A stretch of DNA of 64,000 nt from an uncultured Candidatus Saccharibacteria bacterium (GCA_964469605.1 CAYXZA010000003.1:3721-67720), one strand, 5' to 3'. Shown: positions 14,211-29,930, counted from the stretch's first letter. Numbers and translations: made by a program. Notes: generated from the letters alone by a model not told the origin.

Positions 14211-15236
14211 ATGTCACTAATAGGAAAAGCTTCACCAGAAGATATGAATTTACATCCACTAAATTATAAGTGGGCTTATGATCTATACAATCAAGCTGTT
14301 AGAAACACTTGGTTTCCTCATGAAATAGCTTTAAAAGAAGATCTAGAAGATTTTCAGAAAATGACAGATGATGAAAGACACGCTGTAAAGTTTTTAATGG
14401 CTTTCTTTAATCCGGCAGAGCTGATTGTAAACAGGTCTATTGCACTTGGTATTTATCCTTATCTAAAATCCCCAGAATGTCATCTCTATCTTGCTAAACA
14501 GATGTGGGAAGAGGCAAACCATTGTGTTGCTTTTGAATATGTTTTGGAGACTTTTCCATTTGATAGAGAAAAAATATTCAATTTACATCTTGAAGTTCCT
14601 TCAATGAAAGCAAAAGAGGATTATATAAACAAATATATGAAGAGGATGACAGAAGATTCTTTGGATATTTCAACTGTCGATGGTAAAAAAGATTTTATCA
14701 GGAATTTGGTTGCTACAAATATTGTTATGGAAGGTGTTTGGTTTTACTCTGGATTTATGGTGGCACTTTCTTTTAGACAAAGAAATCAACTAAGAAATTT
14801 TGGTTCAATGATAAACTGGGTTTTAAGAGATGAGTCTCTTCATTTAAAATTTGGTATGAATCTCATTCATAATATTTTAGAAGAAAATCCAGAACTTTTG
14901 ACAGAAGAGTTTGCTGCTGAAATAAGAAACATTGTTATAGAAGGTGTAGATAGGGAAGTTGACTACAACAGAGATCTTTTTCCAAACGGAATCTTGGGAC
15001 TAAATGCTGATTATGTAAACCAATATGTTCAGTATGTTGCAGACAGAAGACTTGAAGAACTTGGTCTTCCAAAATATTACAATGCTACAAATCCAGCAAA
15101 ATGGATGTCAGCAGCAACAGATGTTTATGAGCTTGTAAATTTTTTTGAGGCACAAAACACTAGCTATGAAGTAGATGTAAAATCTGCAGAGACGAAGAAA
15201 GGTGTAAATGAATCAAAAATTGAATCTAGGGAATAA
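14211..15236 (+). CDS. nrdB: Ribonucleoside-diphosphate reductase beta subunit (class Ia R2).
   Basis: Ferritin-like di-iron motifs are present (EEANHCVAFEY, MEGVWFYSGF, RDESLHLKFG). The gene lies immediately downstream of nrdA. Confidence 0.9.
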   Translation: MSLIGKASPEDMNLHPLNYKWAYDLYNQAVRNTWFPHEIALKEDLEDFQKMTDDERHAVKFLMAFFNPAELIVNRSIALGIYPYLKSPECHLYLAKQMWEEANHCVAFEYVLETFPFDREKIFNLHLEVPSMKAKEDYINKYMKRMTEDSLDISTVDGKKDFIRNLVATNIVMEGVWFYSGFMVALSFRQRNQLRNFGSMINWVLRDESLHLKFGMNLIHNILEENPELLTEEFAAEIRNIVIEGVDREVDYNRDLFPNGILGLNADYVNQYVQYVADRRLEELGLPKYYNATNPAKWMSAATDVYELVNFFEAQNTSYEVDVKSAETKKGVNESKIESRE

Positions 15237-15262
15237 GGTGTTGTTTCTTTAAATTTATAAAA

Positions 15263-15314
15263 ATGAAAAACCGCCAGCCCGCGCCGACGATTTTTCTCGT
15301 CGATCGACTGGCGG
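15263..15314 (-). terminator. Rho-independent terminator (minus strand) after the 131-aa gene.
   Basis: Stem ccgccag...ctggcgg encloses the inner hairpin cgacga/tcgtcg. An A-run on the plus strand gives a T-run on the minus strand. Confidence 0.45.
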
Positions 15315-15319
15315 GTGAG

Positions 15320-15715
15320 TTAGTCCGTCACTTCAGTGACGTACCAACCTTTCCCGTGGGTGACAGGAAGACCACATGCCTGGTATTCTTGGTAGAATAC
15401 CACTCTGACCTTTCTGTAGATTTTTTCGCCGAAGATTTTCACTTTGGCGATAGTGTGGGCGTAAGCCGCACACGTTTCTAGGTGGATGTTTCCTTCGCCC
15501 CTCCAATCCTTGGAGGGGCTACCGGAGGCAGGCTTTGTCCACCTCACCTCCGTTACTAGGGCGAGGTTTTTCTCTCGCGCCCACCAGCAGACGGCAACCG
15601 CGGTCTTGCCGACGGGGCAAGCAACTGCCCAGCAACACTCTAGTTTCCACTGAAGAGGAGTTTCAGGTTCCTCTTTGGAGAGGACGTATTTCATCATCTC
15701 TGTTATCATTGGCAT
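15320..15715 (-). CDS. GC-rich foreign gene for a 131-aa Cys-rich protein of unknown family. It may be a papain-like (CHAP/NlpC-P60-like Cys...His) fold, but this is very uncertain.
   Basis: Strong SD (aagggaggaaa) lies 8 nt upstream of the ATG, and the gene has its own terminator. The region is about 50% GC against a ~30% background. Cys cluster LECCWAVACPVGKT, then His at AYAHTIAKVKIFG about 55 aa later. Confidence 0.5.
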   Translation of the reverse strand: MPMITEMMKYVLSKEEPETPLQWKLECCWAVACPVGKTAVAVCWWAREKNLALVTEVRWTKPASGSPSKDWRGEGNIHLETCAAYAHTIAKVKIFGEKIYRKVRVVFYQEYQACGLPVTHGKGWYVTEVTD

Positions 15716-15817
15716 AGGAGTTTCCTCCCTTTCTTTCGTTTGGTTTGGTTTTGCTCATCCAAACGATTTGCTGCTGTACCCAGCAGATAGGTGCTAGAGC
15801 GAGCACCTCTGTTCTAT

Positions 15818-15908
15818 ATTATATCATTTTTAGATGTAAAAGTCAATAACAACCCTCTTTTGTTTTATTGATATAATATTTTAATCTAAAAATAATTTTA
15901 AAAACAAT
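15818..15908. repeat. Direct repeat copy 1 (~90 bp). It duplicates the gap upstream region.
   Basis: attatatcatttttagatgtaaaagtcaataacaaccctcttttgttttattgatataatatttt... is nearly identical to 17321-17410, with 3 differences. Confidence 0.85.
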
Positions 15909-15913
15909 AAAAG

Positions 15914-15945
15914 CACCTGGGGTTGAGCCAGGTGCGTAGGGTTTA
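15914..15945 (-). terminator. Rho-independent terminator (minus strand) after the 465-aa gene.
   Basis: On the minus strand, gcacctggctcaaccccaggtgc is followed by ttttattgttttt. Confidence 0.5.
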
Positions 15946-15957
15946 AAACATGAGAAA

Positions 15958-17295
15958 CTAGCGGCGAGTCTTAGCTCGGTGAGCAACTTCTTTGAGTTGT
16001 CCCTTGCCACGCTCGTGAGGTCGAACATAGGTCTCATTATCGGCGAGCATGATGCCATGCTCTTCTGCTCGCTTGCGTGATTCTGGCGTGGCCTTCTTGC
16101 CTTGCGGAAGTCGGCGGATATGCCAGATCACTTCGTGGCGAGAGATTTCACGAGAACGCTTGGTTGTGTCGGCATCCGCCTTTTCAATTTCCTCTTCCAA
16201 CTCTTGGAGGAGTAAGTCCACGTTTTCGAGTGAACGGATACGCGGAATGAAGAGGTCGAGGTTAAGAAAATGCTTTTTCTTCAGGATATTCTTGATCCTG
16301 TCGAGCACTCCTACGGCGATCGGTGGCTTTGGCATTTTCTCAACTGTCGTGATCGGAACCACGAGGTCGTAGAGTCGGAGAGCTTGAGTGAAGCGAAGGT
16401 ATTCATATAGAGCCACATTGTTGCGACGCTCGAAGAATTGGCGAACAGGCATGAGCCCGAGACCGTAGGAAGCATCCATTTCTCCTTTGATATCCAACGT
16501 CATGAAAACGTGGGCTGGGAAAGAAATTTCCGCACCTACAAATCTACTAATTCCAACTACTCGTTCGGTAGCTTTCGCTCCGATCTGGATGAGGGACTCC
16601 TTGTCTGACAGTCCGATGAAAGCGAACTGTGGAGATATGAACTCTGTCCAGCCAGGGATGAGTTCTCGAATTTCGCAGAAGTCCATGAAGACCCATGCTT
16701 GCGAGGGATCGTGGAGCATGCCATCTTGGAAGAAAGAGTTTTTGACTCCGTACTTCCGAAGGATGGCGAGCTCGTTGATCATATTGGTCGCGTCTTTGGC
16801 TGCTTGGATCGAGTGCTCCTCAATCATGTCTTTTGCTTCTTGTCCAAGCGTAGGGTGAACGAAGAGTTGAGAGGCGAGCCATTCAACTCTATTGACTTCA
16901 CGAACGAAATTCTCCAGACTACTGAACTTGGAATAGAACCAAGTTTCTGTTCCAGTGCCAGAGGCGGAGAGATCAATGTACGTCTTGAGAGTTGCCATGT
17001 TCTTTTCGCCCTTGTCCATTTCAGTTGCGAAGTATGCGGCTACTGCCTGCATTAGCATGTTGCTGCGATTGGTCGAAGCATTTTTGCCAATGCTGTTGAC
17101 TTTGATGCCATCGATCGTGTAGCAGACATCCATATAGGACTGTAGGGCACGATTGAAGTCTTGGTTTTTGACGTAGCGCGTATAGATATCACGCGCCAGT
17201 CTCTTAAGCGTATCGTAAGAGCAGTTCGCGCTGCGAACCAGCACTTGGACCTGCACCTTGAAGGTGAAGTTGGGAATGTCTCGCCATGTGAACAT
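15958..17295 (-). CDS. GC-rich foreign gene for a ~445-465-aa protein of unknown family. The C-terminus is basic and carries R-x4-H motifs (possible HEPN-like, speculative).
   Basis: Long intact ORF at ~50% GC. GGAGG lies 13 nt upstream of the ATG at 17295. The ORF-track start at 17355 falls inside the duplicated repeat. No RT (YxDD), RuvC/Zn-finger, or integrase motifs were seen. Confidence 0.55.
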   Translation of the reverse strand: MFTWRDIPNFTFKVQVQVLVRSANCSYDTLKRLARDIYTRYVKNQDFNRALQSYMDVCYTIDGIKVNSIGKNASTNRSNMLMQAVAAYFATEMDKGEKNMATLKTYIDLSASGTGTETWFYSKFSSLENFVREVNRVEWLASQLFVHPTLGQEAKDMIEEHSIQAAKDATNMINELAILRKYGVKNSFFQDGMLHDPSQAWVFMDFCEIRELIPGWTEFISPQFAFIGLSDKESLIQIGAKATERVVGISRFVGAEISFPAHVFMTLDIKGEMDASYGLGLMPVRQFFERRNNVALYEYLRFTQALRLYDLVVPITTVEKMPKPPIAVGVLDRIKNILKKKHFLNLDLFIPRIRSLENVDLLLQELEEEIEKADADTTKRSREISRHEVIWHIRRLPQGKKATPESRKRAEEHGIMLADNETYVRPHERGKGQLKEVAHRAKTRR

Positions 17296-17320
17296 TACAT
17301 TAACACTGCCTCCGACTCGA

Positions 17321-17410
17321 ATTATATCATTTTTAGATGTAAAAGTCAATAACAACCCTCTTTTGTTTTATTGATATAATATTTTCATCTAAAATAATTT
17401 TTTAAAAACA
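17321..17410. repeat. Direct repeat copy 2 (~90 bp). This is the native upstream/promoter region of gap.
   Basis: Identical to 15818-15908 apart from 3 positions. It abuts the gap ATG at 17411. Confidence 0.85.
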
Positions 17411-18442
17411 ATGAAAAAAATCAAAGTTGCAATAAATGGTGCTGGTAGGATAGGAAGAGCTTTTCTCAAAATCGCTGAAAAAAGAGATGATTTGGAGGTG
17501 GTGGCATTAAATGATCTTGGAAATATAGATAACATTGCTTATCTTTTAAAATATGACACCGCTTATGGCAGAAGTGGTCTTGATGTAAAAGTGGGAGGAG
17601 ACAAAAAAACTATTTTAATTGATGGGAGAGAAGTTAAATTTGTGTCAGAAAAAGATCCAAAAAATTTACCTTGGAAAGATTTTGATATTGATGTGGTGGT
17701 TGAATCCACAGGGTTTTTCACAAGTTATGATGGAGCAAGAGCTCATATAGAAGCTGGAGCCAAAAAAGTTGTAATCTCTGCACCTGCAAAAGATGATCCT
17801 GTTTTAGATACCGATGGTATGATACTTATGGGGGTAAACTGTGATACTTTGAAAGATAAGATCGTTACTTCAAATGCTTCTTGCACAACAAATGCTGGTT
17901 CACCTGTTATTTCCATACTTCATAAAGAGATTGGTATAGAAAAAGCTATTTTAAATACTACTCATGCATATACAGGTAGTCAGTCGATAGTTGATGGTCC
18001 AAATGCTAAAGATTTTAAAGAGGGTAGAGCTGGGGCATCAAATATGGCACCAACTTCAACTGGTGCTGCAAAAGCTACTGCAAAAGTTATAACAGATTTA
18101 AAAGGTAAGTTTGATGGTATTTCAGTTAGGGTTCCTGTTATTGCAGGTTCTATTGCTGATATAACTTTCATTGCAAAAAGAAATACAACAGTTGAGGAGG
18201 TTAATAGTATTTTAAAGAAAGCATCACAAGATAAACATTGGCAGAAAATCTTTTCAGTTGTAGAAGATCCAATAGTATCTAGTGATATTTTAGGACTACC
18301 ATTTGCTTCTATTGCAGATCTTGGACTTACAAAAGTTGTCGATGGGAATCTGGTTAAAGTTATGGCTTGGTATGATAACGAAATGGGTTATACACACTCA
18401 CTTGTTGAGCATGTGATCAAAACTGGTGGTTTTATAGATTAA
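17411..18442 (+). CDS. gap: Glyceraldehyde-3-phosphate dehydrogenase.
   Basis: NAD-binding motif INGAGRIGRAF is present. Catalytic Cys motif ASCTTNA is present. The C-terminal segment WYDNEMGY is present. Confidence 0.9.
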   Translation: MKKIKVAINGAGRIGRAFLKIAEKRDDLEVVALNDLGNIDNIAYLLKYDTAYGRSGLDVKVGGDKKTILIDGREVKFVSEKDPKNLPWKDFDIDVVVESTGFFTSYDGARAHIEAGAKKVVISAPAKDDPVLDTDGMILMGVNCDTLKDKIVTSNASCTTNAGSPVISILHKEIGIEKAILNTTHAYTGSQSIVDGPNAKDFKEGRAGASNMAPTSTGAAKATAKVITDLKGKFDGISVRVPVIAGSIADITFIAKRNTTVEEVNSILKKASQDKHWQKIFSVVEDPIVSSDILGLPFASIADLGLTKVVDGNLVKVMAWYDNEMGYTHSLVEHVIKTGGFID

Positions 18443-18459: not shown

Positions 18460-18699
18460 ATGACAGAAAATTTTTTAATAAAAGGAGTTGATTTTTGGAC
18501 AGAAGAGATAAAAAAAGCAAATGTTTTTAATGAATTAAAGCATTTTAATGATGTTATCACAGGTAACAATGCTCCTTCTGGATATGGAAAAGCTGTTTTA
18601 ACCGATATTACTCTTGATGGAAAAAAATGTGATATTTATCATACTGATTCAAAACAAGGTGATAGTGGACATAGGATTTATATTCATATCAAATCATAA
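18460..18699 (+). CDS. Hypothetical protein. It looks like a truncated paralog of the next ORF.
   Basis: The 79-aa ORF has a C-terminal segment (GDSGHRIYIHIKS) similar to the internal segment GGYSLSIYIHKS of the 140-aa neighbour. Confidence 0.3.
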   Translation: MTENFLIKGVDFWTEEIKKANVFNELKHFNDVITGNNAPSGYGKAVLTDITLDGKKCDIYHTDSKQGDSGHRIYIHIKS

Positions 18700-18710
18700 T
18701 TTTAAAAATT

Positions 18711-19133
18711 ATGTCTCTTGAAGATATTAAAGATCCATATAAAAAGATAGTCTTTAAAGAAGATGAGGGTTTTTATGGAGGTGACCATAATGTTCCTTAT
18801 AATATTTATTACGATATTGTTTGTAAAGATGAAGATATTACAGGAGGATTTTTCATTTGCGCTGAAAATCCAGCTTATTTTGTTTTGACGAATGATACTG
18901 AAGGTGGTTATTCTTTGTCTATCTATATTCATAAAAGTGTTCCAAGAGAATTTGTGGACATATTATTCTTTCATGAAATTAAAGAGGCAGAGTTTAAGTT
19001 TAGCAAGGAAATTGAACCTTCTGTGTGTCATAAAATGGCAGTTGAAGAAGAAGGAAAGTATTTAGAAAGAAATTTTAATAATGAGCAGATAATTAGATTC
19101 AAGGAATATGAAGCTACTATAAGAAAAATATAA
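18711..19133 (+). CDS. Hypothetical protein.
   Basis: 140-aa ORF with no recognised family. Confidence 0.35.
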   Translation: MSLEDIKDPYKKIVFKEDEGFYGGDHNVPYNIYYDIVCKDEDITGGFFICAENPAYFVLTNDTEGGYSLSIYIHKSVPREFVDILFFHEIKEAEFKFSKEIEPSVCHKMAVEEEGKYLERNFNNEQIIRFKEYEATIRKI

Positions 19134-20422: not shown

Positions 20423-21316
20423 ATGCTAACTCCTGAAAAAATTGAGTTCTTAAAAGAAAAATCAACTGATATTAGGGTTTCAATAGTTGAAATGCTTTTT
20501 AATGCTGGTTCAGGACACTCAGCTGGGCCACTTGGTATGGCGGATATTTTTACAGCTTTGTTTTTTGAAATTTTAAATATAGATTATAACAATCCATTTT
20601 GGGAAGATAGGGACAGATTTATACTTTCCAATGGTCATATTTGTCCTGTATATTATGCAACTTTGGCTCATATTGGATATATACCAATGATGGAGCTTAA
20701 AGGTCTAAGAAAGTTCGGTTCAAGACTTCAAGGTCATCCTCATAGACATTTTCTTCCGTTTTTAGAAACATCTTCAGGGCCACTTGGGTCTGGACTTTCT
20801 CAGGCTGTTGGTATGGCTATTGCTATGAGAATGGATAAAGGTAAAAGTGATGGCAGGTTTGTTTATTGTGTAATGGGCGATGGTGAATTAAACGAGGGTC
20901 AAAACTGGGAAGCAATGATGCTTGCTTCAAAAGAAAAATTAGGAAATCTTATTTGTATAATAGACAGAAATAATATTCAAATAGATGGATTTACAGAAGA
21001 TATTATGCCACTTGAATCCTTATTTCATAAATTTGAAAGTTTTGGTTTTCATGTAGAAGAGATAGATGGACATAATTTTACTGAAATATGCAGTGCCATA
21101 AACAGAGCCAAATCAGTTTTCAATGGCCCTAGTGTTATTATAGCCAGAACAATTCCAGGAAAAGGAGTTTCTTATATGGAAAGAGATTATAAGTGGCACG
21201 GAACTCCGCCGGGTATTGTTGATATGCAAGGTGAACCTGCAAAAGAAGAGCAGGTCAAGATTGCACTTTGTGAACTTAGAACTCTTTACGGTGAAATAGA
21301 AAGTGAACATAAATAA
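20423..21316 (+). CDS. tkt: Transketolase, N-terminal (TPP-binding) subunit.
   Basis: GHSAGPLGMADIFTALF and GDGELNEGQNWEA (TPP binding) are present. Split TK architecture. Confidence 0.85.
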   Translation: MLTPEKIEFLKEKSTDIRVSIVEMLFNAGSGHSAGPLGMADIFTALFFEILNIDYNNPFWEDRDRFILSNGHICPVYYATLAHIGYIPMMELKGLRKFGSRLQGHPHRHFLPFLETSSGPLGSGLSQAVGMAIAMRMDKGKSDGRFVYCVMGDGELNEGQNWEAMMLASKEKLGNLICIIDRNNIQIDGFTEDIMPLESLFHKFESFGFHVEEIDGHNFTEICSAINRAKSVFNGPSVIIARTIPGKGVSYMERDYKWHGTPPGIVDMQGEPAKEEQVKIALCELRTLYGEIESEHK

Positions 21317-26605: not shown

Positions 26606-26680
26606 TGGTGACCCTACGGGGAATCGAACCCCGATTTAAGCCTTGAAAAGGCCGTGTCCTAACCGTTAGACGATAGGGCC
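26606..26680 (-). tRNA. tRNA-Glu (anticodon TTC), CCA encoded.
   Basis: Reverse complement is ggccctatcgtctaacggttaggacacggccttttcaaggcttaaatcggggttcgattccccgtagggtcacca. Anticodon loop ttttcaa. T arm cgggg-ttcgatt-ccccg. Confidence 0.85.
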
Positions 26681-26769
26681 AAAAACTTTACATTTAAAAA
26701 TATAACATCTTTTTATATATATTTCAATTGTTTGTATCATTTCAAAAATTTTGATATATTTTCTATGTT

Positions 26770-26846
26770 GCGCGCTTAGCTCAGTTGGCTAGAGCGTCTC
26801 ATTGACGTTGAGAAGGTCATAGGTTCAAGTCCTATAGCGTGCACCA
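26770..26846 (+). tRNA. tRNA-Val (anticodon GAC), CCA encoded.
   Basis: Acceptor gcgcgct/agcgtgc. Anticodon stem tctca/tgaga with loop ttgacgt. T arm atagg-ttcaagt-cctat. The 3' end is cca. Confidence 0.85.
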
Positions 26847-26861
26847 ATAGCAACTTTCTAG

Positions 26862-27237
26862 TCAACAAGCCATGTAAATGGCTTTGAAAGCGTTGCAAAC
26901 ACTGTGTTTTTCTTGCCCATAAAAAAGTTCAAGAAGATCTTCTCGAGGTAGAAGTTCAATTCTTGCATAGATTTGGTTGTGGCTATGATTTGAGCCACTT
27001 TTTCCATGTTGTTCGAGAAACTCCGACATTAGCAGGATCGTACTCTTTTCAGCCTCAATAAGCTTCCTGTAGTTTCTCAATGTCGCCCTGTACTTGCTTG
27101 TGTTCGGTCTTGGCTTTTAGCGGATCTACCTTGAATCCCTCGATAAAACATGAATCTTTCTCATCGAGAATAAACTCATTGATGCGAATGTGCTTCACCG
27201 CAAGTACTTTCTTTTTGCCATTTAAGGAGTTGAGCAA
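26862..27237 (-). pseudogene. Fragmented tyrosine recombinase (integrase) remnant next to tRNA-Val.
   Basis: Two short frame-shifted ORFs. The C-terminal fragment SGSNHSHNQIYARIE resembles the integrase box II (lGHs...T..Y.h) carrying the catalytic Tyr. The position next to a tRNA 3' end fits an integration site. Homology is weak. Confidence 0.35.
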
Positions 27238-27283
27238 TACTCAGTGTTCTTTAAAGTTCATCGTTAAGTTACCTATTAACTTC

Positions 27284-27312
27284 TTGACAAGATTGTAGTA
27301 TAGATGTATAAT
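27284..27312 (+). promoter_or_regulatory. Perfect consensus sigma70 promoter (TTGACA-N17-TATAAT) driving the 4-gene island operon.
   Basis: ttgaca at 27284-27289 and tataat at 27307-27312. The leader that follows contains the hairpin ttggccttttggccaa. Confidence 0.5.
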
Positions 27313-27375
27313 GGTGATTGAGTTTACGTTCTTTGTTTGGCCTTTTGGCCAACCCCTTAGCCTGAGGAGGGCAAC

Positions 27376-27717
27376 ATGACCAACACGATCGTTATCAACG
27401 GCGTCACCATCAGTGGTGGTGGCCAAAACGTCACCATTCGCAATGGCAAGGTGATCGTCGATGGTAAGAATGTTACGCCGGATGCGAAGGAGATCAACAT
27501 CTTCGTCACTGGCAACGTCCAATGTATCGAGGCTGACGCTTGTCAGAAGATTTCCGTCACCGGAGATGCTGGCAGTGTCATTACCCAGAGTGGCAATGTG
27601 GAAGTTGGCGGCGCCATCGGTGGCAACGTCAACACGATGTCGGGAGACGTCGACTGTGGCGGCGCCATCGGTGGCAACGTCAACACGATGTCGGGGGACA
27701 TCAAGTCGCACCAGTAA
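27376..27717 (+). CDS. Beta-solenoid repeat protein (bactofilin/DUF583-like polymer-forming fold, tentative).
   Basis: 113-aa ORF at ~50% GC. SD gaggaggg lies 6 nt upstream of the ATG. Repeated G-x-V/I-x-x-G-x-V units occur, including a tandem GGAIGGNVNTMSGD(V/I) repeat. Confidence 0.45.
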   Translation: MTNTIVINGVTISGGGQNVTIRNGKVIVDGKNVTPDAKEINIFVTGNVQCIEADACQKISVTGDAGSVITQSGNVEVGGAIGGNVNTMSGDVDCGGAIGGNVNTMSGDIKSHQ

Positions 27718-28051
27718 GGTCAAGTATTTTACAACTCGGTTACGAGCGCTTCAGTGATGGAGCGCTCTTTCTTTTGTGATGGTTGTATTTTGAGAATGAC
27801 CGGATGCACTTTGATGGGTTCTTTTTGCTCGGATGCTTTGATCGCTTTGACTTGCTCCTATGTAAAGAAAAGTGCCATGTTCTATTTCAGTATCGAATTG
27901 GCAGTGAGGAATGCAAGGTTGGTTTCCATTTTTTTTGAGGTGGTTTCATGTTTAAAGTTGACGGAACTATTATAGTATTTTACAATAGAGCCTCCAACAT
28001 GGGATTTGCACATGTTGGTTGAAGATCTTTGAAAGTGAAAGGAGGATTTGC

Positions 28052-28780
28052 ATGAATGAAGACACATGTGAGGTGTTGCGTGGACATTTTGAAGATTGTC
28101 TACAACATCTTGGACAAGTTTTCGCCTCAAAAATAAGAAAAGGTTCGCGAGGGGCGGCACAGGCAAAAAAGCCTATAGCTGAATTTTGCGGAGTCACGAT
28201 TGATTCCGTAACTCGATGGCTTCATGGTACTGGATCGTTACCTGTTGGCAAGTTATACATCAAGTTGATGTGTTTTCTCGACATGACAGGTTATCGAGTG
28301 ATCGAGTTGGAGAATATGTCGAAACCTCGTCGAAACTTTATTGAATTTATCGGCTATGGACTCTTTTCCAGTGATCAGGCTGCAGAGTTTCTCGGCTATC
28401 GCTCCACATCCACTCTTTATCAAGTTCTGCAAGGTAATCACCGCATAAGTGAGGACAAGGATCAGAAGATGTGGGATTTGTTTAAGGAAAGAGTGCGGGA
28501 ATTGCAGCAGGAGAAAGAAAGGTTGCAAAAGTTGTACCGATTGGATATTCCGTTGAAGACGGAGTTGTCCAAAATTTCGGGAAGACAAATGTCAGCTAGT
28601 CGCTCAGAAGCGATAGTCAGTATCATGAAAGGTTTGCTTGCGTTGATTGATGAGAGTTCTATTGAGAAACTTTTTGACGACGGGCAAGCAGATCTGAAAG
28701 AATCATCTGATACTATACTCCACCTATTGGCGCACTTGAGTGCCTTACATTCCCGTTTGGTCATGTCCGAGAAACAGTAG
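28052..28780 (+). CDS. Helix-turn-helix DNA-binding protein with two XRE-like HTH segments and a coiled-coil C-terminus.
   Basis: SD aaggagg lies 6 nt upstream of the ATG at 28052. The ORF-track start at 28019 is a TTG codon. HTH-like segments: IAEFCGVTIDSVTRWLHG and AAEFLGYRSTSTLYQVLQG. Confidence 0.5.
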   Translation: MNEDTCEVLRGHFEDCLQHLGQVFASKIRKGSRGAAQAKKPIAEFCGVTIDSVTRWLHGTGSLPVGKLYIKLMCFLDMTGYRVIELENMSKPRRNFIEFIGYGLFSSDQAAEFLGYRSTSTLYQVLQGNHRISEDKDQKMWDLFKERVRELQQEKERLQKLYRLDIPLKTELSKISGRQMSASRSEAIVSIMKGLLALIDESSIEKLFDDGQADLKESSDTILHLLAHLSALHSRLVMSEKQ

Positions 28781-28794
28781 AAAGGAGGTAGTTA

Positions 28795-29055
28795 ATGTCG
28801 AACGACCAATGTTACCAAGCTGTCGTCGATAAGATCATTCCTGGTGGCAAGCATGGCCCCTATGCAGTTGCGCGTTCTGAGAAACTTGGTTCAATCACCT
28901 TCTCGCTTGAAGGCAAGGTCTGGCAAGAGAGAGATTGGCCAGAACCTGGGACATGCGTGATGTTATCACAAGTCAGGAAGAAGCGCGCCGGGTGGCGCGC
29001 ACAACATGGGCGGTTCATTGAACCATCCGACGTCCAAACAACCCAGCAACAGTAA
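28795..29055 (+). CDS. Hypothetical small protein (86 aa).
   Basis: SD aaaggagg is present upstream. GC-rich. No recognised motif. Confidence 0.4.
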   Translation: MSNDQCYQAVVDKIIPGGKHGPYAVARSEKLGSITFSLEGKVWQERDWPEPGTCVMLSQVRKKRAGWRAQHGRFIEPSDVQTTQQQ

Positions 29056-29067
29056 GGAGAAAAAGCA

Positions 29068-29868
29068 ATGAGCAGTCAGAAAATCGAGAAAGTGGCACTG
29101 AAGGACTTGAAGATTAGTCTGTTTGTTCGCAAACAGCTGAATCAAGAACATGCACTGTATCTTGCAGAGCTCATCGAGAATGGTACCCAACTCCCTCCAA
29201 TCCAAATCACAAGTGATTATGTGGTGATCGATGGACGGCATCGTATCGAGGCTCACGGTCTTAATAATCAAAATGAGATCATGGCTGAGATTGTGGATAA
29301 TATTGTAACTGATAGTGAACTTATTTCTATGGCCTACAGGGCCAATATAGGTGGTCCGCTTCCACCATCGCAGCATGACACGGAGTATACGGTTATGTTA
29401 CTTCTTGATCGTGGAGAGAATATAAAGCGCATCGCCTGTATGCTAGGTCTTCCTATTAATCTGGCACGCAAGTACATCAACTCAGTGCAGTCGAAGGTTT
29501 TGCGTAAAAAGTTGATAAAGGCTATTAGAGGGATCACTGAGGATGGTATTACTATCGATACGGCCGCCGATAAGTACGGGGTGAATGCTGATTCCATCAA
29601 ACAAATGATTTCCGGCCAAAATAGGAAGTGTAATAGTGATTTTTTCTCAGATGTTATGAAAGGTCTCAATGTGACCTATAAATCGGTGAATTTGAAGAAA
29701 GCAGCCCTTTTCAAAGAATTAATGCAAAAATATGATGATAGTGATGTGACAGATGAGCAGGTGGAAGAAGTTTTTGCGCGTATCGAAAAGCTTCATAATC
29801 GGTCCGCTCATCTTGTTAATGAATGGAAGAGGCGGTTCGAGGCGAAAGGTAAGATTGCAAGGTTGTAG
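29068..29868 (+). CDS. ParB/Srx-fold (ParB N-terminal domain) protein.
   Basis: SD aaggag is present upstream. N-terminal region VALKDLKISLFVRKQ...LPPIQITSDYVVIDGRHRIEAHGL matches the ParB N-terminal domain pattern (arginine-containing H/RR box after vIDG). Confidence 0.6.
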   Translation: MSSQKIEKVALKDLKISLFVRKQLNQEHALYLAELIENGTQLPPIQITSDYVVIDGRHRIEAHGLNNQNEIMAEIVDNIVTDSELISMAYRANIGGPLPPSQHDTEYTVMLLLDRGENIKRIACMLGLPINLARKYINSVQSKVLRKKLIKAIRGITEDGITIDTAADKYGVNADSIKQMISGQNRKCNSDFFSDVMKGLNVTYKSVNLKKAALFKELMQKYDDSDVTDEQVEEVFARIEKLHNRSAHLVNEWKRRFEAKGKIARL

Positions 29869-29890
29869 TAGTTCTTTTGTGTAAGTATGG

Positions 29891-29930
29891 GCCCGAGGTA
29901 TCACACTCTATGTGTACCTCGGTTTTTTAT
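29891..29930 (+). terminator. Rho-independent terminator at the end of the island operon.
   Basis: cccgaggtatcacactctatgtgtacctcgg is followed by ttttttatatttttt. Confidence 0.5.

Follow-up and report, generated by a model that had tools for sequence, protein, structure and literature searches.

A duplicated promoter-like repeat and two foreign gene blocks in the nrdB-gap spacer of an uncultured Candidatus Saccharibacteria bacterium

The foreign segment between nrdB and gap

We analyzed a stretch of 64,000 nucleotides (nt), hereafter the window, from an uncultured Candidatus Saccharibacteria bacterium (GCA_964469605.1 CAYXZA010000003.1:3721-67720), a reduced genome of the candidate phyla radiation with ~31% guanine plus cytosine (GC); all positions are counted from the first letter of the window. 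Between the host genes nrdB and gap lies a foreign segment (15314-17320) with two minus-strand genes, called here gene A and gene B, together with two copies of an AT-rich direct repeat of 91/92 nt, called here P90, and the order to be explained is nrdB-B-P90-A-P90-gap (Table 1). On balance, we consider it probable that these are two unrelated foreign blocks, acquired independently at a host insertion hotspot by illegitimate recombination, with a local duplication of the promoter region.

Table 1. Features of the nrdB-gap locus, with positions counted along the window
Feature	Position	Strand	Description
nrdB, ribonucleotide reductase small subunit	14211-15236	+	Open reading frame (ORF), Pfam Ribonuc_red_sm; host gene, left border of the hotspot
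GC-rich nested hairpin	15265-15313		Terminator scan match 15296->15265; between the stops of nrdB and gene B
Gene B	15320-15715	-	ORF of 131 codons; 7 Trp, 6 Cys, isoelectric point (pI) 8.5
Gene B leader	15716-15817	-	102 nt, four hairpins, fold z-score (z) = -5.3
P90 copy 1	15818-15908		Repeat D1/D2, GC 0.15; putative minus-strand -35 15846-15841 and -10 15823-15818, towards gene B
Gene A terminator hairpin	15913-15935	-	Terminator scan; U-tract 15912-15905 runs into P90 copy 1 at its end
Gene A	15958-17295	-	445 amino acids (aa), ATG start; large uncharacterized family
Gene A leader	17296-17320	-	25 nt; GGAGG 17313-17309, 13 nt before ATG
P90 copy 2	17321-17412		GC 0.17; putative minus-strand -35 17349-17344 and -10 17326-17321, towards gene A; putative plus-strand 17371-17376 and 17393-17398, towards gap
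gap, glyceraldehyde-3-phosphate dehydrogenase	17411-18442	+	ORF, Pfam Gp_dh_N/C; host gene, right border of the hotspot

In its composition the segment is clearly foreign to the host. Over 300-nt intervals, GC content is 0.47-0.54 across ~15250-17300 versus 0.28-0.36 on either flank, and GC at third codon positions (GC3) is 0.57 in gene A and 0.61 in gene B versus 0.11-0.22 in nrdA, nrdB (0.22), gap, rpiB, and rpe and 0.11-0.26 in the host genes as a group; no rRNA that could be a source of the GC peaks was found within the window. A GGAGG site precedes gene B (15724-15728, with the ATG 8 nt on) and gene A (17309-17313), whereas even a 4-mer Shine-Dalgarno core is present upstream of just 2 of the 31 host ORFs of at least 200 aa. 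These observations agree with a first-pass annotation, made from the sequence alone, of a ~50% GC segment in an AT-rich genome, with GGAGG before each of two minus-strand genes in a host that mostly lacks such sites. Both ORFs exist, and gene B has the 131 codons given there, but gene A is better read as 445 than as 465 aa. Likewise, the terminator assigned to each gene is retained for gene A (15913-15935), but the hairpin given to gene B is probably the nrdB terminator of the host. In many host genes (e.g., those starting at 20423, 23413, 48613, 52541, and 57979), a TGnTATAAT -10 box lies only 7-12 nt ahead of the ATG, and host mRNAs may therefore be largely leaderless or very short-leadered.

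The GC-rich hairpin beyond nrdB is homologous to a terminator in the nrdB-gap spacer of a related locus (L025; nhmmer E = 0.019). It is predicted to be a two-way terminator and, given this homology, is probably the host's own nrdB terminator rather than that of gene B, which sets the left limit of the foreign DNA at ~15314.

Using the Gap protein of the window, we retrieved 80 related metagenome loci (labeled L with a number), most of which have rpiB, and usually rpe, downstream of gap. In seven of the 80, nrdB (83-90% aa identity to that of the window) lies directly upstream of gap, and six of these seven also carry nrdA. The seven spacers measure 31 base pairs (bp; L034), 55 bp (L040), 370, 422, 577, 837, and 859 bp, and none of them holds a relative of gene A or gene B; the spacer in the window is 2174 bp. 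The longer ones hold an ORF for a 59-aa membrane protein, or ORFs of 75, 92, 65, and 79 aa without a Pfam match, and three of these spacer ORFs (those of L031 and L025, and the 65-aa ORF of L039) have GGAGG-type sites, each in a spacer with a terminator hairpin. Since the spacers of relatives are empty or variable and free of A and B, the spacer of the window is derived and nrdB-gap is a recurrent insertion site, i.e., a hotspot for accessory DNA. The annotated horizontal acquisition is thus borne out by the foreign composition and by the empty junctions of 31 and 55 bp, and the ancestral arrangement that it had allowed for, with homologues of both genes at the nrdB-gap junction of relatives, was found in none of the seven contigs. 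One nrdB-gap spacer (L056:5258-5929) carries a tyrosine transposase gene of the IS200 or REP (repetitive extragenic palindrome)-associated type (Y1_Tnp, Pfam E = 5.8e-8), flanked by the palindrome CTGTTCAACACCGAGTGTTGAACA.

The repeat P90 and its predicted promoters

The two copies of P90 are 94% identical across 87 nt (15818-15904 and 17321-17407), and the match runs on, with a net length difference of 1 nt, to 15908 and 17412, so that the first two letters (AT) of the gap start codon are included. Within the window, a 57-nt core is present exactly twice versus 0.00 times expected by chance. The first 65 nt are identical and all five differences lie within the ~27 nt nearest gap, a clustering for which our own estimate, (27/92)^5 or ~0.002, indicates non-randomness and which suggests selection on, or homogenization of, the promoter part. 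Spaced 1503 bp apart, the copies flank exactly the gene A unit as direct repeats. From other sequencing runs, two Logan unitigs match the window at 100% identity over 15847->12153 and end exactly k-1 = 30 nt into copy 1, as would be expected of a genuine repeat in those samples. The near-identical ~90-bp copies of the first-pass annotation were therefore confirmed, and their derivation from the gap upstream sequence is supported by the GC content of 15-17%, by a -10 box 12 nt short of the ATG, and by the match that reaches the start codon.

On the minus strand of both copies, a promoter scan found a site of near-consensus sequence, TTGACT-17-TGaTATAAT, which matches at 11 of 12 positions and has the extended TG; this site is absent from the first-pass annotation. 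In both copies, its -10 hexamer ends exactly at the left edge of the repeat, and both foreign blocks are joined to the same P90 nucleotide. A plus-strand site, TTGATA-16/17-AATAAT, ends 12 nt short of the gap start codon, an arrangement usual in this host. From these motifs we infer that P90 is a divergent promoter pair, which would serve gap on the plus strand and the leaders of A and B on the minus strand. On the latter, transcripts would begin near 15811 and 17314 and end at 15262 and 15905. As the duplicated P90 carries this promoter on the opposite strand, the duplication would have furnished each foreign block with a host-type promoter and left gap with the one it had. In copy 1, the gap-type plus-strand site (15868-15896) aims into the 3' end of gene A and could yield an antisense transcript.

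The promoter arms of P90 form an imperfect inverted repeat, with 29-nt arms of 72% complementarity and the perfect core TTTTTAGAT / ATCTAAAAA. This palindrome lies at 15812-15907 and 17321-17398, and ATCTAAAAA sits within the spacers of both divergent promoters. Because of this position, an inverted copy of the gap promoter may have given rise to the minus-strand one; alternatively, ATCTAAAAA may be an operator.

The right end of copy 1 reads ...AAAAACAAT|AAAAGCACC, where AAAA doubles as the U-tract of the gene A terminator, and that of copy 2 reads ...AAAAACAATGAAAAAAATC. The junction thus falls in an A-run common to the gap start (ATGAAAAAA) and the terminator U-tract, as is typical of an illegitimate join assisted by microhomology. 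In the 3' flank of another gene A cassette (L101:1526-1640), we noticed stretches of 20-22 nt that resemble the P90 segment AATTATTTTTAGATTAAAAT and the sequence beside nrdB at 15250-15271, within the interval 15237-15275. These similarities are ~6 standard deviations above mononucleotide shuffles and lie in AT-rich palindromic terminator flanks; they may reflect generic AT-rich terminator flanks or be a trace of common history.

Gene A and gene B

Gene A belongs to a large, unnamed family. In a set of 5.8 billion proteins we found 23 homologues (81-27% identity), none with a Pfam domain or an informative name, and a profile search of 1.84 billion representatives found 1042 members at E <= 1e-3, 178 of them at E <= 1e-30; the family size is accordingly given as at least 1042 clusters at 50% identity. 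A second profile search, again of the 5.8-billion-protein set, added one fragment only. The matching genomes are metagenome-assembled genomes of Saccharibacteria and one of Bdellovibrionales. Neither gene A nor gene B has a significant match in Pfam, PHROGs, PADLOC, or NCBIfam, and an ArdA match (E = 0.41) was dismissed as noise. The annotated absence of both proteins from recognized families is thus true for curated libraries, though not for gene A at large, and the defense function that was proposed found no match in PADLOC. The sequence profile search of the PDB with gene A gave 0 matches, and neither its sequence nor its fold matches a known structure. A possible E3_binding domain (Pfam PF02817) in the C-terminal helix was rejected, since only 3 of 24 members match, the best at E = 0.015, which is under the threshold; the resemblance is limited to the motif SPEARxxAxExGIxL. 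Gene A was not found in the phages of IMG/VR or INPHARED, and plasmids gave a single distant relative. This relative, a 464-aa hypothetical protein of Paenibacillus polymyxa plasmid pSC2 (510 kb; L100:3810-5204; hhalign probability 96.7%), is encoded within a run of small same-strand hypothetical genes beside an IS200/IS605 tnpB.

The AlphaFold2 model of gene A has a predicted local distance difference test score of 81. It predicts an N-terminal domain of seven helices (residues 13-179), a beta-rich central domain (187-268) followed by helices and a disordered linker, and a small, basic C-terminal domain (387-429) of beta-beta-alpha-beta-beta order; the last 66 residues have a pI of 11.1. Across 153 diverse members, R180-x-Y182-G183-x-K185, W201, G271, D310-L311-x-x-P314, and P351-R352 (with R352 invariant) are conserved, as is the C-terminal motif RxLPxG...A...TxVxxHxRG. 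The window copy shows full-length similarity to the family and has RxYGxK, DLxxP, PR, and the C-terminal RxLPxG...TxVxxHxRG. In its clade, the ratio of nonsynonymous to synonymous substitution rates (dN/dS) is 0.10-0.16 at dS of 0.5-1.9, i.e., the gene is under purifying selection, and this, together with the confident model and the conserved core, indicates a functional gene. Its GC content equals that of the surroundings in L001, L002, and L015 and exceeds it in the clade of the window; this mixed pattern is indicative that the family holds both long-term residents and recent transfers. Since its C-terminal domain is basic and conserved, its expression signals are strong, and its distribution is that of a transferable accessory gene, we weakly suggest that gene A may encode a stand-alone accessory protein that binds nucleic acid via this domain and might take part in genetic conflict or defense.

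The 465-aa version of gene A is a database call from a TTG at 17355, which we rejected as over-extended because it enters the AT-rich repeat and disagrees with the N-termini of homologues (MFTW / VSLSW). Nucleotide identity to the closest copies (L009, L010, and L005/L007) is 73-80% and is confined to ~17291 to ~15891, from the start codon to just beyond the terminator hairpin, so that the B block is excluded. The terminator hairpin GCACCYGGCTCAACCCCGGGTGC is kept in four of five related cassettes (L101, L009, L010, and L005), and the other copies have their own promoter, TTGACA-17-TGTATAAT, and a leader of ~50 nt with AAGGAG. The common promoter, leader, and terminator indicate that the mobile unit is a complete promoter-gene-terminator cassette of ~1.47 kb. 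The window copy lacks the cassette promoter and leader and has instead P90 and an unrelated leader of 25 nt, which is not homologous to the ~50-nt one. Block A is thus a 5'-truncated copy, with ORF and terminator kept, of a cassette that circulates among Saccharibacteria. In this short leader the GGAGG is followed, after 8 nt, by AUG-UAA, whose UAA overlaps the true AUG as UAAUG; this start-stop mini-ORF (17296-17313, minus strand) could couple the translation of gene A by reinitiation.

Elsewhere, gene A was found in 11 further distinct loci, with different neighbors each time and gene B in none. No direct or inverted repeats were found flanking these copies, and all-against-all BLAST of the neighboring ORFs gave no conserved partner save nrdA/nrdB in L001. 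Some neighbors of family members are of the defense-island type (NYN, NTP_transf_2, SNase, ResIII, and YgjP). In L001 (2589-10475), nrdA and nrdB are separated by a 50%-identical relative in the opposite orientation. The nrdB there is 83% identical to that of the window and is followed by genes for a large serine recombinase, a helix-turn-helix protein, and a ResIII helicase; an element may thus have integrated at the equivalent hotspot. Two copies have decayed: that of L012 has an in-frame stop (7992-8648 / 8658-9350), and the member P0016 looks frameshifted, with a C-terminal part that cannot be aligned with the family. L012 also has, relative to the syntenic L011 (3089-3095), an additional GC-rich cassette of 445 bp (9399-9842) exactly between the gene A terminator and the promoter of the next gene; it carries an ORF for a 101-aa membrane protein with its own promoter and terminator, and its gain is an event comparable to that at the window locus.

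Block B is a sequence of ~500 bp without relatives, in which a 131-codon ORF lies inside an exceptionally structured predicted transcript. Searches of ~15 billion sequences returned only self-matches for the protein, and the DNA, compared with plasmids, phages, and the related loci examined, matched only the terminator in L025. It is possible, though we hold it only tentatively, that gene B has another role than that of a protein gene, or one in addition to it: the ~550-nt transcript that runs from P90 copy 1 to the terminator would then be a structured non-coding RNA of a new type, or the block would be a DNA element with several hairpins, for instance a single-strand origin or recombination site. 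Folding potential, which had gone unremarked in the first-pass annotation, speaks for this: z is -9.4 over the 563 nt of the transcript and -7.1 for the ORF alone, the leader is strongly folded too, and in sliding windows z reaches -9.0 on both strands at 15300-15599, versus -1 to -3 in gene A, about -1 in host genes, and +0.9 to -2.9 in six small ORFs from other hotspot cassettes. The block has perfect hairpins of 9-10 bp, and the last hairpin of the leader (GGGAG-GAAA-CUCCU) pairs the Shine-Dalgarno site 15724-15728 and would thus sequester it; the missing protein homologues and the odd composition (5% Trp, 5% Cys) point the same way. GC-rich structured islands in AT-rich genomes are, moreover, a classic signature of large non-coding RNAs, and OLE, ROOL, and GOLLD are such GC-rich structured RNAs of AT-rich bacteria. 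Block B resembles these in that ~550 nt of GC-rich sequence, from promoter to terminator, have an extreme predicted structure and lie in a genome of 31% GC, but it differs from them in having no Rfam match or homologues and in its full-length ORF with a start and a Shine-Dalgarno site. On the coding side, the frame is free of stops over 131 codons versus 3-11 stops in each of the other five frames, which by our own estimate would be expected by chance in ~2% of such sequences; the ATG follows GGAGG by 8 nt, the stop lies just ahead of the terminator, and GC at the three codon positions (0.52/0.45/0.61, i.e., GC3 > GC1 > GC2) suits a coding frame. Rfam, too, gave no match at the gathering score (the only match, Clostridiales-2, has E = 0.52 and 18.7 bits versus a threshold of 58.6 bits), and the lack of similar DNA in plasmids, phages, and related loci and of homologues for covariation counts against an RNA.

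Origin of the arrangement and other readings

The duplication of P90 would most likely have arisen when DNA was taken up, through illegitimate recombination assisted by microhomology. Natural competence is known for Saccharibacteria (PMC10633639), and in competent bacteria linear foreign DNA can integrate with one homologous and one illegitimate end (PMC3240628). The event would be like this process in involving foreign linear DNA, no dedicated recombinase, a short microhomology at one junction (here the A-run), and a competent host group, and unlike it in that we infer the event from its end product alone. Along one route, such homology-facilitated (one-ended) illegitimate recombination, or an unequal exchange, would have taken place between a B-carrying and an A-carrying allele; along another, a local tandem duplication of P90 would have captured a 5'-truncated fragment of gene A. 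By either route the promoterless gene A would end up behind a working copy of the promoter. Neither route alone would explain why the duplication stops just where the -10 box does, which selection for expression would.

Several points weigh against this history. The left edge of the duplication is at once the end of the -10 box and the junction of the gene B leader with host-type DNA, which a random duplication does not predict, and this coincidence hints at selection for expression or at some site preference. Upstream of gap in relatives, P90 could not be aligned, as intergenic DNA is too diverged, and the ancestral gap promoter was not recognized; the description of P90 as native to the host therefore rests on its composition, its architecture, and its extension into the ATG. 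The promoters and terminators of the locus are consensus matches only. Family members of gene A adjoin nrd genes in 2 of 12 contexts and pgl-gnd-zwf in one more, a proximity to nrd and pentose-phosphate genes that we estimate to be above chance and that could be due to a functional tie or to homing instead of to the sharing of a neutral hotspot. Finally, no known defense or DNA-binding domain that would support the function proposed for gene A was found.

If the proximity to nrd is taken at face value, gene A could be a selfish gene of the homing type, which would spread by cutting a conserved neighbor (the nrd region) in genomes that lack it and by being copied in during repair. Phage T4 mobE, a free-standing homing endonuclease gene, lies between nrdA and nrdB, and gene A likewise stands alone in or next to nrdA-nrdB in two related hosts (between the two genes in L001, just past nrdB in the window). 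With its own promoter and terminator it sits between highly conserved genes, it is patchily distributed with empty sites in relatives, its GC content is above that of the surroundings in most loci, and some copies (L012, P0016) have decayed. We nevertheless consider homing improbable, as no domain or fold of any homing-endonuclease class (LAGLIDADG, GIY-YIG, HNH, His-Cys, or PD-(D/E)xK) was detected, most contexts, nine in number, are unrelated to nrd, and gene A is absent from the phage collections searched; in several lineages the composition matches the host, suggesting long residence, and strong purifying selection acts across the clade. The pairing of A and B as one system (toxin and immunity, abortive infection, or other defense), which the first-pass annotation had put forward, could be argued from their adjacency on the same strand, their similar foreign GC3, the co-regulation that identical promoters would bring, and the defense-island-type neighbors of some family members. 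It did not stand up: none of the 11 other contexts of gene A contains B and B was found only in the window, DNA homology covers only gene A and its terminator, B has no homologue, and in the window the two are separate transcription units, split by a terminator and host-type DNA; with Pfam and PADLOC also giving no matches, a two-gene system is very unlikely.

We attach an equally small probability to P90-A-P90 being something other than the chromosomal arrangement as drawn, either a 1.5-kb circle (A plus one P90) threaded in by the assembler or a small element, with P90 as attL/attR, mobilized in trans by an integrase from another locus. The A unit is indeed bounded precisely by direct repeats 1503 bp apart, whose 65 identical nt make k=31 assembly graphs branch, and no recombinase is encoded in the segment or beside the unit. 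On the other hand, P90 is just 92 nt with five differences, which ordinary reads of 100-150 nt span, and three NCBI contigs of ~70 kb carry the same neighborhood as the window; other copies of gene A have no such flanking repeats, and a repeat that reaches the gap start codon suits a local duplication better than a dedicated attachment site. An insertion sequence or transposon was rejected for want of a transposase model match, of terminal inverted repeats, and of repeats at other copies, the sole repeat being the locus-specific 92 nt, and the annotated view that this was not a classic transposition is thereby upheld. An integron cassette was also rejected: the hairpins are ordinary terminators with U-tracts, the ORFs checked gave no tyrosine-recombinase match, and each block has its own promoter with no common Pc. 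Rather unlikely, as a whole, is the most ambitious combination, in which gene A would be the first noticed member of a widespread family with a novel fold, acting on nucleic acids via its invariant Arg/Tyr/Lys core and basic C-terminal domain (as a conflict/defense or homing-type factor with an affinity for nrd and pentose-phosphate genes), and block B a large and novel structured RNA, gained by horizontal transfer and transcribed from a host promoter that was duplicated.

We therefore return to two independently acquired blocks with a local promoter duplication as the history that we favor. Both a hotspot and promoter capture by duplication are already known phenomena. Integration hotspots between conserved core genes are a general concept in bacterial pangenomics, and the nrdB-gap spacer is like them in its position between syntenic genes, in its content, which varies among relatives or is empty, and in the foreign composition of that content; it is unlike them in that the inserts in the window are very small, single-gene, self-contained expression cassettes, in that the locus has no integrase, tRNA, or att site, and in its reduced host without Shine-Dalgarno sites. 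The rnk-citT duplication of the E. coli long-term evolution experiment is reportedly a promoter capture by tandem duplication. There, as here, the duplicated segment sets a copy of a promoter before a gene otherwise without one (here gene A), whereas the segment at our locus is of 92 nt only and a bidirectional region, the gene expressed is foreign DNA at the duplication junction, and the promoters are predicted. What is new is the duplication of a 92-nt putative bidirectional promoter serving two unrelated cassettes, a large family without a recognizable fold, and a structured element without homologues. The locus would illustrate how a reduced, naturally competent genome acquires foreign genes as cassettes of one gene each, running from promoter to terminator, in a spacer between core genes, and how a foreign gene without its own promoter may be rewired by duplicating 92 nt of a host promoter. 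The gene A family, being large, under purifying selection, confidently modeled, and without relatives in sequence or fold, is worth characterizing, and the B block is a candidate large structured RNA; major concepts would change only if the function of gene A or the RNA nature of B were established.

Two further regions of the window deserve mention. A second GC-elevated island (0.40-0.53) at 26900-29900 directly follows the tRNA genes at 26609-26843; its ORFs 28052-28780 and 29068-29868 have a GC3 of 0.45 and AGGAGG / AAGGAG sites unlike host genes, and Pfam gave no match for them bar one weak match to HTH_23. The interval between gap and rpiB holds, at 18460-19133, two AT-rich ORFs (79 and 140 aa) without a family match, where some relatives (e.g., L021) have just ~8 nt, which indicates that this spacer is also variable.

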